Assembly (NCBI GenBank): GCA_016214345.1
Contig: JACROR010000009.1
Span: 66,447 to 130,446 of the forward strand
Source of the DNA: Candidatus Niyogibacteria bacterium
GTDB lineage: Bacteria; Patescibacteriota; Minisyncoccia; JACROR01
DNA: 64,000 nucleotides
Reading direction: 5' to 3'
A program made the position numbers and the translations under genes. Positions 13,653 through 35,036 of the stretch are shown in pieces. Numbering within the stretch: position 1 is the stretch's first letter; every line of letters starts with the position of its first letter. The notes below the pieces were generated by a model. The model had not been told where the DNA came from, ran no database searches, and saw nothing but the letters and a program-made list of their open reading frames with translations.

Positions 13653-14843
13653 ATGAAAAAGGATAATGACAAAATAAAAGAATTACTGGACCGGAGAGTG
13701 GTCGGCATCATAGTCAGAGAGGAGTTGGAAAAGAAGCTCAGATCCGGCAAAAAGCTGCGTATTAAGCTGGGGGTTGATGTGGCGCGTCCGGACATACATC
13801 TGGGGCATGCCGTGGCTCTGTGGAAGTTGCGAGAGTTCCAGGATTTGGGACACACGGTCATCTTTTTGATAGGCGACGCCACTACGCGCATAGGCGACCC
13901 TACGGGTCAAGACAGAACCAGGCCGCTTTTAACGGAAGAACAAATCAATAAAAACGCGGAAACCTACATAGAACAAGCCGGTAAAATTTTAGACATTAAT
14001 AAAACGGAAGTTCGCCGCAATTCGGAATGGTTTGATGAGATGGCCATGTTTGATTTTATAAAACTTCTTACCATGGTAACCCATTCGCAATTGATAGCGC
14101 GGGAGGCCTTTCAGGAAAGAATTAAGGCCGGTAAGGAAATTTTAATGCATGAAATAATCTATCCGGTCATGCAGGGGTACGACTCGGTCGTACTGAAGGC
14201 GGATGTGGCCGTACACGCGGACCAGCTTTTTAATGAACATTTCGGCCGGATGTTGCAGGAAAAGTTTGGGCAAGAACCGCAGACGATCATGACGGTGCCC
14301 ATATTGGTGGGCTTGGACGGCAAACATAAAATGTCCAAGTCTTTGGATAATTATGTGGGCGTTGCGGAGAGTCCGGAGAGCATGTACGGAAAAGCAATGT
14401 CTTTACCGGATGAATTAATAATTGATTATTTTAATTTGTGTACTTTTGTTGACGCGGCTGAAATTTCTCAAATGAATGAAGCAATAAAAAATCATAAATT
14501 AAATCCGCGTGATGTGAAAATGAGATTAGCGCGCGAGATTGTTTCTATTTATCATAGTGTCAAAGATGCGGACGGAGCGGAGGAAAATTTTAAAAATATT
14601 TTTCAAAAAGGCGCTTTGCCGTCAGAAGTTCCTTTGCTGATTTTGCGGTCTCCGGGAAAATTATCCGATATTTTATTGGGCGCGAAATTGGTTTCTTCGC
14701 GTTCGGAATTCCGGAGGCTGATCAATGCCCGAGGTATAGATTTTGAGGGCGTTGTGGTGGAAGATCCGCATCGCATTATTAATGAGTCGGGCACAGTACG
14801 AGTGGGCAAACTTAAATTTTTAAAAATAGAGTTTATAAAATAA
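13653..14843 (+). CDS. tyrS: Tyrosyl-tRNA synthetase
   Basis: HIGH motif HLGH, KMSKS motif, C-terminal S4 domain. Confidence 0.85.
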   Translation: MKKDNDKIKELLDRRVVGIIVREELEKKLRSGKKLRIKLGVDVARPDIHLGHAVALWKLREFQDLGHTVIFLIGDATTRIGDPTGQDRTRPLLTEEQINKNAETYIEQAGKILDINKTEVRRNSEWFDEMAMFDFIKLLTMVTHSQLIAREAFQERIKAGKEILMHEIIYPVMQGYDSVVLKADVAVHADQLFNEHFGRMLQEKFGQEPQTIMTVPILVGLDGKHKMSKSLDNYVGVAESPESMYGKAMSLPDELIIDYFNLCTFVDAAEISQMNEAIKNHKLNPRDVKMRLAREIVSIYHSVKDADGAEENFKNIFQKGALPSEVPLLILRSPGKLSDILLGAKLVSSRSEFRRLINARGIDFEGVVVEDPHRIINESGTVRVGKLKFLKIEFIK

Positions 14844-14874
14844 TAATCCCGGCGCAGCCGGGATTATTATTTTA
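14844..14874. terminator. Intrinsic terminator after tyrS
   Basis: AATAATCCCGGC-GCA-GCCGGGATTATT followed by a T-run. Confidence 0.7.
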
Positions 14875-15184
14875 TAGTTCTTCGTTTTCTTCTGTGGGAA
14901 ATGCTTCCTCTGCGAATTCTTCCGGGTCCGTCATTTCTTCCGGGTCATCAATATTCTCCCCGTCGTCCGTATTTAAGATTATATCTTTTGAAATTAAATC
15001 CATGCGTTTTTGTTTAGCTAATTATTACGACCTTGCCCGCCCTTTCGCGGGAAATATTTATAATTCCTACGGAAATTCAAGAAATGCCGCGGCATTTCTT
15101 ATATTTGTACCAAAATTAATATTTTTGTAAAGACCCCGTAATTTTATTGTGGATAACTTGTGAGCAAGGCCTGTATATGGTTAT

Positions 15185-15676
15185 TTATAGCCCTATTTTA
15201 TGGTAAGCAAAGGCAGTTAAGGTGATGGCCAGAGCGTCCGTAGTGTCGTCGTATTTGGGAATTGTTTCCAATTTTAGCAGCATTTTAACCATGGCCTGCA
15301 CTTGTTTTTTATCGGCTTTGCCGTAGCCGCATATGGCGGTTTTTACCTCCAGGGGCGCGAATTCCATGAGCGGTATTTTGTTTTGCGCCGCGAGGTAAAT
15401 GAGTATGCCGCGCGCTTCCGCCACTTTGAACGCGGTTTTTTGGTTTTTAGTGAAGTAAATTTTTTCCAAAGCAATGGCGTCGGGATTTTGTTCGCGAATG
15501 ATTTTTTTAATTCCCGATCCTATGGCCAGCAGCCTCTTTTCATACGCGGTATTGTTATAGGTTTCCAGGCATCCCAGGCATTCCACAATATAATTATTGC
15601 CTTCGCGCGAAATAACGGAATATCCCAAGCGTCCAAAGCCGGGATCAATTCCGAGAATTTTAGTGTGCGCGGCCAT
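15185..15676 (-). CDS. ruvC: Holliday junction resolvase RuvC
   Basis: RuvC catalytic motifs (ILGIDPG...; DALAIA region). Confidence 0.9.
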   Translation of the reverse strand: MAAHTKILGIDPGFGRLGYSVISREGNNYIVECLGCLETYNNTAYEKRLLAIGSGIKKIIREQNPDAIALEKIYFTKNQKTAFKVAEARGILIYLAAQNKIPLMEFAPLEVKTAICGYGKADKKQVQAMVKMLLKLETIPKYDDTTDALAITLTAFAYHKIGL

Positions 15677-16209
15677 TATTCGGCGTTTGAATAAATTTCC
15701 TGTATGTCGTCATGGTTGTCCAGCGCCTCCATAAGTTTGTCAAAAGTTTTCGCGTCTTTTTCATTTAACGCCACGGGCATTTTAGAAAACCATTCATTGC
15801 CTTTTTTTTCAAATGCCCAAGTGACCGATCCGGTTTCCGCCAACTTGGCGTTATGTTCGGATAAAATATGTTTTATTTCCGCGACCGTTCTGTTTTTATT
15901 GTCGGTTACGGCTTCAATGATGATGGCCACCCCTCCCGGACCATAGGCTTCGTATCTTGCGGATTCAAGCGTTGCGCCTCCTGATTTTCCGCCACCTTTT
16001 TTGATGGCGCGTTCAATATTGTCAGCTGGCATATTCGCGGCTTTGGCTTTTTCCACGGCGGCGCGCAGATCCGGATTGGTATTGGGATCTTCTCCTTTAC
16101 GGCTGGCTAACTGTATTATTTTTGCCAGCTTTCCGAAAATCTGCCCTTTTTTAATATCCGTAACGGCTTTTTTATTTTTGATTTGTGACCACTTGCTGTG
16201 TCCCGACAT
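15676..16209 (-). CDS. yebC: YebC/PmpR-family protein (short variant lacking the middle domain)
   Basis: N-terminus [15 protein letters not shown]... and C-terminal [11 protein letters not shown]. Confidence 0.8.
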
Positions 16210-16221
16210 ATTAATTAAATA

Positions 16222-16740
16222 TTATTCGTTCAAATTAGGGCTATTTGAGCCAGTTTTGTTTTTTTGAGCGTATTCCAAAATTATATCTTTAGCGTGGCCG
16301 GCATTGGGTATGTTTTTGGCTATGAACTGCTTTTCTCCCGCGGTTTGCACTATGATGTTTCCGAATTTAAAAACGGTCGCGAAAAAGTCGGGTATTTCCA
16401 CGGTTACATCTTGTACGCGGGACAGCATGAATTCTGAAATTTCCCGGTTGAAAAGTCCGCGTTGTTCAATGCTTATAACCCGTTCATTGGTTATGATCCA
16501 CATATCCAAATAATAATCCACCCACAGGATGAAGCTTATGAGTAAAATAATTAAGATATATATGCTAAGCAAGAAGGCGGCGAGCGTCGTGTAATTTTCC
16601 GGAATATAGGCCGAAGATATTTGCGTTAAGATTACGGCGATCAAAAGCATTATTATAATGACCGTCATTTTGCTGCCGATGACGAACCAGTGCCGGTGCA
16701 CGGCCAAAATTATTTGTTCTCCGGATTTGGTTTCAAACAT
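16222..16740 (-). CDS. Membrane protein with bacterial PH domain (bPH_2/YdbT-like)
   Basis: Two TM helices followed by a PH-like region ERVISIEQRGLFNREISEFMLSRVQDVTVE. Confidence 0.5.
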   Translation of the reverse strand: MFETKSGEQIILAVHRHWFVIGSKMTVIIIMLLIAVILTQISSAYIPENYTTLAAFLLSIYILIILLISFILWVDYYLDMWIITNERVISIEQRGLFNREISEFMLSRVQDVTVEIPDFFATVFKFGNIIVQTAGEKQFIAKNIPNAGHAKDIILEYAQKNKTGSNSPNLNE

Positions 16741-16942
16741 GGAAAATTTGGTCCCACGGCACCGTGAAAAAAAGCGCCGCGGAAATTATTATGAATATTG
16801 CGATGGTTCCCAAAAACACCTTGGTTATCAGGTTGCGTTTGTCGTCGGGCAGCACATATTCTTTTAAATGCCAAAGAATGATCGCGACAAATGCCACATA
16901 AGACAAGATAAACAGGGAATATATTATTAAAGGAATGATCAT
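16733..16942 (-). CDS. Small membrane protein, hypothetical
   Basis: 69 aa with two hydrophobic helices; translationally coupled between ruvB and the PH-domain gene. Confidence 0.4.
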
Positions 16943-17973
16943 AGTAAATGGTTTTGATTTTGGCGCGGAGGGTTTTTGCCCAAGTGTTCAAACGCGCCCG
17001 TGGTTGCCGTTCTTCCTCTTGGCGTTCTTTCTATAAATCCTAATTGCAGGAGGTATGGTTCATACACCTCTTCAATGGTGTCCGGATCTTCGGATAACGC
17101 GGCGGCTATGGTTTTTATACCGACCGGTCCGCCGTTAAATTTACTTATAATGGTGTCCAGTATTTGACGATCATGATTTTCTAGGCCAAGGCGATCAATT
17201 TTTAACATTTCCAGCGCCCTTTCCGTTTCGTTAATGGTTATGATCTCCGCTCTTTGAACTTGCGCGTAGTCTCTGACCCTTTTTAACAGCCGATTGGCCA
17301 CTCGCGGCGTTTGTCTGGAACGCTCGGCTATAATAGTTGCCGCGTCATCGTTTATTTTTATGCGGAGAATTTGTGCGGAACGGAGAATTATTTTTTTAAT
17401 TTCCTGGTTGCTGTAAAAATCCAAACGGAAGCTGCCGCCGGAAAATCTGGACCGGAGCGGGGAAGACAGGAGGGAGATGCGGGTAGTCGCGCCTATTAAG
17501 GTAAAGGCCGGCAGTTCCAATTGTATGGAGCGGGCAGAGGGGCCCTTGCCCAGCACGACATCCAACGTTCTGCTTTCCATGGCCGGATAGAGCACTTCTT
17601 CTATGAGTTTGTTCAGCCGATGTATTTCATCAATAAACAAAATATCTCCGTTGGAAAGATTGGTGAGTATGGATGCCAGATCTCCCACCCGTTCAATGGC
17701 CGGACCGGAAGTGATTTTTATGGGCGCGCCGATTTCATGCGATATAAGATAGGCAAGCGTGGTTTTGCCGAGTCCCGGCGGTCCGTAGAAAAGGAGATGT
17801 TCCACGCATTCGCCGCGTTCTTTCGCTGCCTGGATTAAAATACTTAAATTTTGTTTTACGGTATTTTGCCCTATGTATTCATCCCAGCGTCTGGGACGCA
17901 AAGTAAGGTCAAGATTTTTGTCTTCTCCTTGTTGATTGGGCCCTGTGGCGGATGATAATGGGGGGGTTGACAT
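16939..17973 (-). CDS. ruvB: Holliday junction helicase RuvB
   Basis: Walker [10 protein letters not shown], RuvB-specific [12 protein letters not shown]. Start placed at MSTPP (17973), ~25 aa before the conserved LRP; the ORF track extends to 18150 through a region I interpret as promoter plus ncRNA. Confidence 0.85.
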
Positions 17974-17995
17974 ATTTTTAATTTGGATATATAAT
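17967..17995 (+). promoter_or_regulatory. Perfect sigma70-consensus promoter (TTGACA-N17-TATAAT) on the + strand
   Basis: TTGACA at 17967-17972, 17-nt spacer, TATAAT at 17990-17995. Confidence 0.6.
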
Positions 17996-18001
17996 ACTTC
18001 T

Positions 18002-18190
18002 AAATTTAGAAGCGAGCTTTGCACTTTTAAGTCTCTGGGTGATACCATCGCAAGGTGGCAGGACTTTCTTTTAAGGGCAATCTGGCTCTCCACTTCTTGT
18101 GGCAGAACCGCTGGACCGCTCCTTTGGGAAAGCTCTAAGCTATTGGTCAACTCAATTAGTATATTGCCCGGAGACTTAAAGGTGCTATTC
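18002..18190 (+). ncRNA. Candidate structured small RNA (~185 nt; 6S-like size and closing helix; family unassigned)
   Basis: Predicted TSS ~7 nt after the -10; 5' palindrome CTTCTAAATTTAGAAG; 19-bp long-range helix 18021-18039 with 18167-18185 carrying two U-G pairs that are valid only on the + strand; no coding potential; convergent with pilB. Confidence 0.4.
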
Positions 18191-19855
18191 TCCTAAAACT
18201 CGGCGCATTTCTTCAACACTGGTTTTGCCATCTAAAATTTTTAATGCCGCGTCTTGTTCCATGGTCAGCATATTTTGATGTTTGGCCAATTTTTTGTATT
18301 CGGATTCTGGCGGATTTTCAAGGATAAGACGCTGCGCTTCGTCGTCAATACTAAATGCTTCATATACTCCGATCCTCCCTTTATAGCCCATATTGTTACA
18401 AGCGTCGCATCCTTTTGCTTTCCAAAGTTCAAGTTTATCCAAAGGGGGTTTTTTAATCGTTTCCGGAAGTTCGGCTAACTTTTTTTTCAAAAATTCTATT
18501 TCTTCGGCGGTGGCCTTTTCCTTCTTTTTACATTTTTCGCATAAAACTCTCAATAGCCGCTGCGCCATGGATACGCTTACGGCCGGACCAATAGTGTTGG
18601 GAGTCGCGCCCAGATCAATCAATCTTGGTACTGTGCCAAAAGCATTGTTGGTATGAAGCGTGGAAAAAACCAGATGCCCCGTGAGCGCGGCGTTTAACGC
18701 GGTTTTGGCCGTTGCCAAATCTCTTATTTCGCCCACCAATATAACATCCGGGTCTTGTCTTAGAACCGCTCGCAGAGCATCCGCGAAATCATAATTCTTG
18801 CTAAGATCTATTTGCGATTGATTTATGCCCGCGATATGGTATTCCACGGGGTTTTCTATGGTGATAATTTTTATCTCCGGAGAAAGGATTTTTTTTATAA
18901 AAGCGTAAAGCGTGGTAGTTTTTCCCGATCCGGTAGGTCCGGTGGTAAGGATCATGCCGTTTGGTTTATTTATCGCTTTTTCTATGATTTTGCGCAGGCT
19001 TTCGTGCATGCCCAGATTTTCAAATGAAACATCGATGGCTTTTGGATGAAGCACTCTTAGCACTATGGATTCTCCGTAAGCTCCCGGAAGGCTTGAAGCG
19101 CGCACTTCCACGTCCGTATCATTTATGCGTATGGTGAAGCGTCCGTCTTGCGGGCGGTCGGCGACATTTAACTTCATTTCTCCTATAAGTTTAATGCGGG
19201 ATAAGAGCAGCTTGTAGACGCTGTCGGGGAAATTTATAATGTCATTTAATACGCCGTCCAGGCGAAATCTTAGTTTGGCTTCATTTTCTTGCGGCTCAAT
19301 ATGAATATCGGACGCTTCCAAGGCGTATGCTCCGGCTAAAATCGCTTCCACCATGCTGGATGCCGTGCGAAGTTGCCGCGCGGAGATGATCGGAGCCAAC
19401 AATTCTTTAAAATTATTTATATTGGTTATTTTGGCGATATATCCCGCCAAATGCTCTTTGGAAATACTGATGAGTCCGGCCGCAACCTCTTCAAATTCCG
19501 GAACTTCGCTATAGCGGCTCCAGGCCCGCTGTAAGCTGGTTTCGGAAACCATAAAAATGGTAAGTTCGTATGCCTCGTCTTTCAGGCGAGTTGTGATTTG
19601 TAGGGTTTGCGGCAATTCCGGATTGCGTACGGCAACGCTTATTTTTTTCCCCACTTTTTGGAAAATCGCGATTTCTCCTTCGCGCGCTTCTTTTTCGGGT
19701 AAAATTTTTAAAGCATCCAGCTCTATATTGATCCTGGAAAGATCCAGATAGGGCAGTTTATATTTTTGAGACAATATTTGGGCGAGGTCTTCGGCCTCTT
19801 TTTTTTTGATGCTTTCTATGCGTTCTTCCTGATTTTTTTCGTTAAACTCCGACAT
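18185..19855 (-). CDS. pilB: Type IV pilus assembly ATPase PilB/GspE family
   Basis: Walker [11 protein letters not shown], GspE_N domain, C-terminal Zn-binding CxxC...CxxC. Confidence 0.85.
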
Positions 19856-25511: not shown

Positions 25512-26099
25512 ATGATTGGGACACTCAGAGGAAAAGTTATATTTGGTGGAGAAAAATACGTTATTTTGGACGTAGCCGGGGTAGGTTACAAGGTATATGC
25601 CCCGCCCTTTACCATTAAAGCGGCCGCGGCAAAACAAGGGAAAAAAGGCGAAGACACGGTGTTTTGGACGCATCTTTGCGTGCGTGAAAACGCGATAGAT
25701 CTTTACGGGTTTACCGAGAAGGCGGAGGTGGAATTTTTTGAAGCCCTGATCGCTATTTCCGGGATAGGTCCGAAATCGGCGATGGGCGTGATGAGCGTGG
25801 CTCCGTTGGATACTTTAAAAATGGCTATTGCTTCCGGTGAAACCTCGTATCTTTCTAAAGTTTCCGGCGTTGGCAAAAAAACCGCGGAGAAGATCATCGT
25901 GGAGCTGAAGGATAAATTTGGCAGAGGATCGGGCGCGGCGTCTGAAATATTGGGAGGTGACGGAGACGTCATTGGAGCTCTGGAGTCCATGGGTTATTCT
26001 TTGAAAGAAATACGCGAAGCCCTGCAAGAGGTGGGGGCGGACGCTAAGAGCGTGGAACAAAGGATCAAGGCGGCATTAAAAGTCTTAGGTAAACAATAA
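25512..26099 (+). CDS. ruvA: Holliday junction helicase subunit RuvA
   Basis: Begins MIGTLRGKV... and has an HhH domain. An extended -10 promoter TGGTATAAT lies at 25491-25499, so the ORF-track start at 25470 is too early. Confidence 0.85.
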   Translation: MIGTLRGKVIFGGEKYVILDVAGVGYKVYAPPFTIKAAAAKQGKKGEDTVFWTHLCVRENAIDLYGFTEKAEVEFFEALIAISGIGPKSAMGVMSVAPLDTLKMAIASGETSYLSKVSGVGKKTAEKIIVELKDKFGRGSGAASEILGGDGDVIGALESMGYSLKEIREALQEVGADAKSVEQRIKAALKVLGKQ

Positions 26100-34508: not shown

Positions 34509-35036
34509 ATGGCCCCAAATAATTTATATTTGATCCTGCATAATATCAGGAGCCTTTATAATGTGGGATCGATGTTTAGGACCGCGGATGCGGCCGGAGT
34601 TTCTAAGATATTTTTGACCGGTTATACCGGAGCGCCCCAAGACAGATTGGGCAATGCGCGCAAAGGCATACACAAAGTGGCATTGGGCGCGGAAAATTCC
34701 GTACCCTGGGAGAGGCGCGCTGATCTGCCGAGCTTGATTGAAAAGTTGCGCCGGGAAAAAGTTTTTATTTTGGCGTTGGAGCAATCTCCGAAATCTTTTA
34801 ATTATGAAAAAGCCGAGAGCTATTTGCGTAAAAGAAAAATTGCCAACAAATTTTTCGGCATCGCGCTTCTAGTCGGCAATGAGGTCCGCGGTCTATCGCC
34901 CCAAATTCTTAAAAAATGCGATGCCATTATGGAAATTCCCATGCGCGGCAAAAAAGAATCATTGAATGTGTCAGTTGCGGCGGGAATTGCTATATTTAAA
35001 CTTCGCGAAACGTTATTTACCCTGCTATTGACATAA
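34509..35036 (+). CDS. SpoU/TrmH-family RNA 2'-O-methyltransferase
   Basis: SPOUT motifs GSMFRTADAAG, LVGNEVRGLS, ESLNVSVAAGIAIF. Confidence 0.8.
   Translation: MAPNNLYLILHNIRSLYNVGSMFRTADAAGVSKIFLTGYTGAPQDRLGNARKGIHKVALGAENSVPWERRADLPSLIEKLRREKVFILALEQSPKSFNYEKAESYLRKRKIANKFFGIALLVGNEVRGLSPQILKKCDAIMEIPMRGKKESLNVSVAAGIAIFKLRETLFTLLLT

Follow-up and report, generated by a model that had tools for sequence, protein, structure and literature searches.

In the window analysed here, a stretch of 64,000 nucleotides (nt; 64 kb) of contig JACROR010000009.1 from a Candidatus Niyogibacteria bacterium, the spacer between ruvB and pilB very probably contains an RNA gene, predicted at 18021-18185 on the + strand. 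On the - strand, the order is a gene for a 361-amino-acid (aa) unknown protein, pilB, the interval with the RNA gene on the opposite strand, ruvB, a gene for a bPH-domain protein, yebC and ruvC. An earlier note on this DNA had proposed a structured small RNA here, with its own promoter and a long closing helix. Our comparative analysis showed, at the level of sequence, the existence of the element, its strand, its covarying junction, its conservation across a whole class and its fixed place beside ruvB. The features of the locus are as follows, with the predicted helices numbered P1 to P4 and base pairs abbreviated as bp.

15185-17973, - strand: ruvB-bPH-yebC-ruvC cluster, with ruvB as its head gene
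16939-17973, - strand: ruvB, 344 aa from the Met at 17973 (MSTPP...)
17967-17972, + strand: -35 hexamer TTGACA of the RNA promoter, overlapping the ruvB start codon (ATG at 17971-17973, read as CAT on the + strand)
17990-17995, + strand: -10 hexamer TATAAT, perfect in the window and in the homologous loci L202, L204 and L207
17997-18012, no strand: 16-nt perfect palindrome CTTCTAAATTTAGAAG in the short leader, spanning the predicted start
18021-18044, + strand: 5' arm of P1, the 24-bp closing helix
18045-18058, + strand: hairpin P2, a 5-bp stem capped by a GCAA tetraloop and not present in all family members
18061-18136, + strand: P3, a long irregular arm of 29 pairs with the most conserved sequence (AAGGGCAAUCUGG ... 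GCUGGACCGCUCCUU)
18139-18160, + strand: hairpin P4, directly abutting the 3' arm of P1 and also returned by an independent RNAalifold prediction
18162-18185, + strand: 3' arm of P1, ending at the pilB stop codon, without a U-tail in the window
18185-19855, - strand: pilB (T2SSE ATPase), convergent with the RNA gene

Promoter and fold of the predicted RNA

The perfect TTGACA-N17-TATAAT promoter that the earlier note had placed at 17967-17995 on the + strand was found as described, its hexamers separated by a 17-nt spacer, and it ranked top by score among the promoter-like sites of the window. Searched at up to one mismatch from this consensus, the 64 kb held this one site, against a chance expectation of 0.62; taken alone, this uniqueness is not significant. 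Two further good promoter-like sites, each combining TTGACA with a TG-extended -10, were located at 35028 (+) and 42011 (-). Transcription of the RNA would start at about 18002, and the product would comprise a core of ~165 nt (18021-18185) plus a leader of ~20 nt. The palindrome at 17997-18012 is indeed a perfect 16-nt repeat, as had been claimed, but it does not simply form the 5' end of the RNA, because it straddles the predicted start. In L202, a locus whose RuvB shares 94% identity with that of the window, the palindrome is degenerate; in L204 and L207 it is absent or different, and it is probably incidental.

Within the 64 kb, the arm 18021-18039 recurs once, as its reverse complement at 18167-18185 with two mismatches (0.02 expected), and both mismatches form U-G pairs on the + strand. 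The 19-bp closing helix proposed earlier was thus correct in its pairing but not in its length, as P1 lengthened on folding to 24 bp (18021-18044 with 18162-18185), four G-U pairs included. Folding of the 200 nt after the promoter bore out the expected structure, with -83.1 kcal/mol on the + strand (z = -6.5) versus -70.3 kcal/mol on the - strand (z = -5.8). Two features go beyond the earlier description: the core is predicted to fold as a four-way junction of P1-P4 and no simple rod, and the promoter shares bases with the start codon of ruvB. The 3' arm of P1 adjoins the pilB stop codon (18185-18187), in agreement with the proposed convergence on that codon.

Homologues, covariation and strand

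Relatives were sought with the RuvB protein in one genome per species. The best match, at 68% identity, came from a Ryanbacteria genome and placed the window in the Candidate Phyla Radiation (CPR)/Patescibacteria. Single-sequence nhmmer and blastn searches against the RuvB loci returned one marginal match, L018, which became the seed of all later models. L018 has the same architecture upstream of ruvB, a fold of -83.0 kcal/mol on the RNA strand versus -58.5 kcal/mol on the other, and a textbook terminator after the RNA. From a two-sequence profile we proceeded to a covariance model, R1, built from 13 sequences (167 positions). With R1 and the related searches, the element was found in ~24 CPR genome loci reached via RuvB, in each directly upstream of ruvB and on the strand opposite to it. 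These were labelled Ryan-, Sungii-, Nomura-, Zambryski-, Kaiser-, Niyogi- and Moran-bacteria or Minisyncoccia, the class to which NCBI taxonomy assigns the orders Ryanbacterales and Moranbacterales. No element was found in Chloroflexota, Bacillota or the other non-CPR RuvB loci scanned. Against R1, the window scored 111.2 bits at 18020-18191 on the + strand (E = 2e-21) and 23 bits on the - strand, and its closest relative, L202, scored 104 bits. L202 was reached by homology search, at 94% RuvB identity; an exact-protein look-up of the window's RuvB and PilB gave no record. The window combines an R1 match opposite ruvB with the TTGACA/TAnnnT promoter, P1, P3 and P4, the features by which we delimit the family.

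Metagenome contigs were further scanned with a pattern made from the two P1 arms, which yielded at least 120 stretches; all 120 listed score 67-137 bits with R1. The same pattern had no match in viral contigs. The genome and metagenome sets together hold at least 140 copies, at least 134 of them distinct. Since the metagenome set was chosen by P1 sequence, it is biased to one P1 sequence type. Divergent members found via RuvB have quite different P1 sequences and keep the pairing. In all loci examined there was one R1 copy per locus, always beside ruvB, and the window likewise holds one significant copy. A weak 25-bit match at 14835-14880 (+), just after the tyrosyl-tRNA synthetase gene, is 46 nt long, enough for no more than a small portion of the 167-position model, and is probably spurious.

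The promoter is conserved in the family. Perfect TTGACA stands upstream of the RNA in 121 of 130 homologous loci and a TG-extended -10 (TRTGnTAnnnT) in 128 of them, with the consensus cTTGACAT-N-TATGCTAnacT across relatives. The spacing between the -10 and P1 ranges over 20-146 nt (median 65 nt over the 130 loci; 24 nt in the window). In 41 of the 130 loci, for instance in the long leaders of L003, L004, L005, L013 and L018, a terminator-like hairpin with a U-run lies between promoter and P1. This hairpin could be an attenuator or mark a separate short transcript and, being confined to these loci, is not a core feature. A U-run follows P1 in 80 of the 130 loci.

Single-sequence folds recovered P1 in 114 of 114 cases, P4 in 113, P2 in 106 and the P3 core in 99. 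The base of P3, which is drawn from these folds only, was recovered in 94 of 114. A common register for the P3 base was not obtained, as both anchoring on AGGAC/AUCCU and a column search on alignment A3 failed, because internal-loop sizes vary by clade. P3 has the family consensus AGGACGUnYUGG ... CUGGnnYUAUCCU and G-U-rich pairing. Short variants of 130-147 nt (L008 2706-2835, L019 2645-2785 and L039 2793-2939) lack P2 and form a three-way junction, so that P2 is dispensable. The hairpin tips vary as well, with GCAA in the window's P2 and UUCG in the P3 of L018.

Covariation was scored on 82 sequences (80 distinct rows) fitted to R1, to which P4 and two P3 pairs were added from the independent RNAalifold prediction. 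As the alignment had been fitted to R1, the resulting counts, listed below with their controls, lean somewhat to the modelled pairs.

Cells forming a standard pair: observed 91.4%; shuffled 79.0% (0 of 500 shuffles reach the observed value); best slid control 50.8%
Pairs changed on both sides: observed 35 of 46; shuffled 25.0; best slid control 25
Covariation score: observed 0.422; shuffled 0.187; best slid control 0.128
P1: both-side changes in 17 of 23 pairs, 95% of cells paired
P2: both-side changes in 5 of 5 pairs
P3: both-side changes in 7 of 11 modelled pairs
P4: both-side changes in 6 of 7 pairs

The compensatory substitutions that the earlier note had suggested looking for in the ruvB-pilB spacer of relatives were therefore present. 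They support, on comparative grounds, selection on the closing helix. Between the window and its closest relative, P1 itself shows exchanges of U-G to C-G and of G-C to G-U. The same alignment bears on the strand. Paired columns hold 366 G-U/U-G cells versus 84 A-C/C-A cells, and at the P3 column pair 92/124, 57 of 80 sequences have U-G. On the 13 loci from which it was built, R1 scored 87-150 bits on the RNA strand versus 23-57 bits on the reverse strand. Judged by the G-U excess, the R1 scores (111 versus 23 bits in the window), the conserved promoter and the U-runs after P1, the RNA strand is the + strand of the window, as the earlier note had argued from the two U-G positions of its helix.

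The ruvB neighbourhood and facing promoters

The public call for the closest relative stretches RuvB (L202 2501-3655, protein P0001) to 384 aa, ~40 residues in excess, across the RNA gene, and in the window an open reading frame extends RuvB to 18150. Homologues of RuvB measure 332-351 aa, and their alignment to the protein that starts at Met-17973 begins at its residue 1. Neither the 59-aa N-terminal extension of RuvB nor an 86-aa + strand open reading frame in the interval has a Pfam match. Between the window and its closest relative the spacer carries indels of 1, 2 and 4 nt, and such changes between close relatives exclude coding. From these comparisons the extension to 18150 is a gene-calling artefact; the earlier view that the interval is non-coding and the extension untranslated was upheld, and a RuvB start at 18150 found no support.

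The linkage to ruvB is strict. Among the matches listed, ruvB is divergent within 600 nt in all 103 metagenome loci with at least 500 nt upstream of the RNA, and in 69 of 89 metagenome loci pilB converges on the RNA from within 500 nt. The in-frame ruvB ATG overlaps TTGACA in 89 of 128 loci, where the sequence reads ATGTCAA. The CPR loci that lack the RNA are organised differently, with ruvA directly before ruvB in L012, one small nuclease gene between the two in L021 and an unrelated gene upstream of ruvB in L020, and none of the three has room for the RNA gene upstream of ruvB. In the window, ruvA lies elsewhere, at 25512-26096 (+), unlinked from ruvB. The notion that the RNA replaces RuvA was rejected on the ground that the window encodes ruvA.

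A second promoter often faces the first. On the ruvB strand, an extended -10 (TGnTAnnnT) falls within the RNA leader in 69 of 130 loci, versus 23 expected by shuffling; it reads TGCTATAAT in 30 loci, and its median distance to the ruvB ATG is 54 nt. None is evident in the window's clade, and the ends of the transcripts are predicted ones. In the loci L099, L118, L112, L135, L109 and L142, the RNA leader contains a perfect extended -10, AAATGCTATAAT, directed at ruvB, and many of these leaders carry a recurrent UUUAUCAACA ~20 nt past the RNA -10. With promoters set face to face, each transcript must cross the other promoter, and interference between the RNA and the ruvB operon is therefore plausible from the arrangement of the sites.

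Known RNA families and rival explanations

The earlier note had been unable to assign a family, and neither could we. Rfam 15 gave one spurious 13-bit match and no 6S in 17800-18350 at E <= 10, two tRNAs only and no canonical 6S over the whole 64-kb window at the gathering threshold, and neither a match on the element nor a 6S at E <= 10 in 20 homologous loci. The Rfam 15 models of SRP RNA, RNase P RNA, tmRNA, tRNA, 5S rRNA and Y RNA did not match the element, ARAGORN found no tRNA or tmRNA in 17800-18400, and no description of this RNA was found in the literature searched.

Three known systems besides 6S RNA invite comparison. Ms1 RNA of Actinobacteria, a 6S-like RNA that binds core RNA polymerase, is likewise lineage-restricted, highly structured and missed by generic models; at ~300 nt it is much longer. 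Ms1 genes were reportedly traced via their conserved gene neighbourhood, and Ms1 is described as structurally related to 6S RNA (PMC9130861). Homology to Ms1 was judged by the negative Rfam scan only. The csRNAs (cia-dependent small RNAs) ccnA and ccnB are short, CiaR-dependent, base-pairing regulators. They belong to another phylum and an unrelated family, whereas the tips of the present RNA are variable and give no hint of a seed region. In Streptococcus pneumoniae, the intergenic region that precedes ruvB contains ccnA and ccnB (PMC9764711). The shared site is probably coincidental. Coliphage 186 pR/pL is a convergent promoter pair that causes transcriptional interference. It resembles the present arrangement in setting a strong and a weaker promoter face to face over tens of bases with crossing transcripts, and differs in that here one partner would yield a large structured RNA; interference at the present locus is suggested by the layout of the promoters.

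The earlier note had likened the element to 6S RNA (ssrS, RF00013) in size and closing-helix architecture. The two share some features: ~165-185 nt, a strong sigma-70 promoter of its own, 5' and 3' ends held in a long closing stem (P1, 24 bp) opposite a long apical stem (P3, 29 pairs), and, 3' of the centre, a small hairpin as in B. subtilis-type 6S (PMC8876501). A functional 6S analogue would use P1 as downstream DNA, P3 as the -35 side and P2/P4 as the pRNA (product RNA) bubble that binds sigma-70 RNA polymerase. The very strong promoter, the one detectable copy in the 64-kb window and the lack of a canonical 6S there would suit it. However, 6S RNA is defined as a rod with an unstructured central bubble whose open 5' strand serves as template (PMC8876501). 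The centre here is instead a closed junction, four-way or, in the short variants, three-way, in which covarying hairpins replace the bubble. Its 5' side is taken up by the covarying P2, whose linkers are very short in the folds inspected, or amounts to 1-3 nt in L008 and L039, leaving no open template strand. P1 is almost perfectly paired instead of interrupted, and the gene is locked to ruvB. Besides the negative Rfam scans of the window and the 20 homologues, R1 run with filters off on the annotated E. coli ssrS locus (L201) gave no significant match, its best hit of 3.9 bits lying outside the gene. A likeness between the 5' end of E. coli 6S (UCUCUGAGA) and P1 (UCUCUAAG) was set aside as a positional coincidence, R1 having no significant match to ssrS. 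On this sequence evidence, membership of the 6S family is rejected, a 6S-like mechanism is unlikely, and we give the analogue as a whole only a remote chance.

What then could the RNA do? One possibility, which we hold to be unlikely, is that it acts mainly on ruvB, in cis, as an antisense RNA or through transcription interference; what matters would be the promoter and leader that face the ruvB promoter and 5' untranslated region. With equally modest probability, the four-way junction would then be no more than a 3' domain that stabilises the RNA, ends its transcription and shields it from read-through out of pilB. The absolute linkage to ruvB (103/103 among the matches listed), the overlap of the -35 with the ruvB ATG (89/128), the face-to-face promoters (69/130) and the ancestral ruvA-ruvB operon retained in RNA-less CPR relatives all speak for such a device. 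Yet a 165-nt junction with four covarying helices and conserved internal-loop residues goes far beyond what a stabiliser needs, and the leader, on which the device would depend, is highly variable in sequence and length (20-146 nt) and only ~20 nt long in the window. It is improbable that the RNA is instead an orphan aptamer or ribozyme with a ligand-binding or catalytic pocket formed by the P3 loops and the junction. In the compact junction, some positions that are unpaired or non-canonical are indeed invariant (C87 and U130-A131 of alignment A3, and tandem G-U). These conserved unpaired residues are few, however, no expression platform or same-strand downstream gene was found, and no Rfam ribozyme or riboswitch matches. 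We see little chance, moreover, that the RNA is tied to Holliday-junction processing, with the interlock making ruvB-yebC-ruvC expression reciprocal and the junction acting as a decoy or regulator of RuvA/RuvC. The same low probability attaches to the evolutionary part of that proposal, by which the RNA-ruvB arrangement would have taken the place of the ancestral ruvA-ruvB operon throughout one CPR class.

Least credible of all is that the signal belongs to the - strand (a ruvB leader or riboswitch, or a pilB terminator), to a DNA inverted repeat such as a miniature inverted-repeat transposable element (MITE) or protein-binding palindrome, or to a longer RuvB. The - strand folds well too (z = -5.8), the site lies between pilB and ruvB, which are both on that strand, and gene callers stretch RuvB through the element (P0001, 384 aa). 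Against this stand the G-U excess (366 versus 84), fold energies that favour the RNA strand in most loci, as in L018, the R1 scores on the 13 model-building loci, and the promoter and U-tails on the strand equivalent to +. The single copy in the window, the non-triplet indels and the lack of a Pfam match point the same way. A riboswitch or 5' leader of ruvB was ruled out on these strand data, the structure lying on the strand opposite ruvB. A MITE or other dispersed repeat was ruled out by copy number, with the arm sequence confined to this locus in the 64 kb and a single R1 copy per locus examined.

We therefore lean, with somewhat better than even confidence, toward an uncatalogued RNA family of Minisyncoccia (Paceibacteria) that would act in trans as a ribonucleoprotein and whose promoter would be interlocked with ruvB. 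The long P1 would clamp and protect both RNA ends and, in most relatives, would double as the terminator hairpin, while P4 would stack against P1 in a compact junction. The resulting stable scaffold would be recognised by a protein partner and would work as a ribonucleoprotein and not as a base-pairing regulator. Recognition by protein is suggested by the tips, which vary, while the P3 internal loops and the vicinity of the junction are conserved. In cis, the interlocked promoters would probably make synthesis of the RNA and of ruvB-bPH-yebC-ruvC interfere and so couple them inversely, and we propose that this interlock is why RNA and ruvB are never separated. Several points weigh against this proposal. 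The RNA gene is known from sequence, with the transcript and both of its ends predicted, and the protein partner is hypothetical. The near-invariant inner P1 of the metagenome set is an ascertainment effect and does not count as evidence of recognition by protein. In the window, no terminator-like site was seen on the + strand between 18185 and 18700, and the transcript may continue into pilB in antisense orientation. A promoter facing ruvB can be recognised clearly in only about half of the loci; none is clear in the window's clade, whose leader is shorter. Conserved gene order also occurs with housekeeping RNAs that have no cis role.

A large part of bacterial diversity belongs to the CPR/Patescibacteria, whose genomes are tiny, and to our knowledge almost nothing is known of their non-coding RNAs. 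An RNA with so strong a promoter and such extensive covariation, retained in an entire class of streamlined genomes, is unlikely to be dispensable, and this new class-level structured RNA is probably protein-bound. It offers RNA biologists a new orphan class to characterise. For annotators, the model allows the recurrent RuvB over-extension of 40-60 residues across the RNA gene to be removed. The fixed head-to-head layout with ruvB would, in addition, allow promoter interlock to be tested in a minimal genome.

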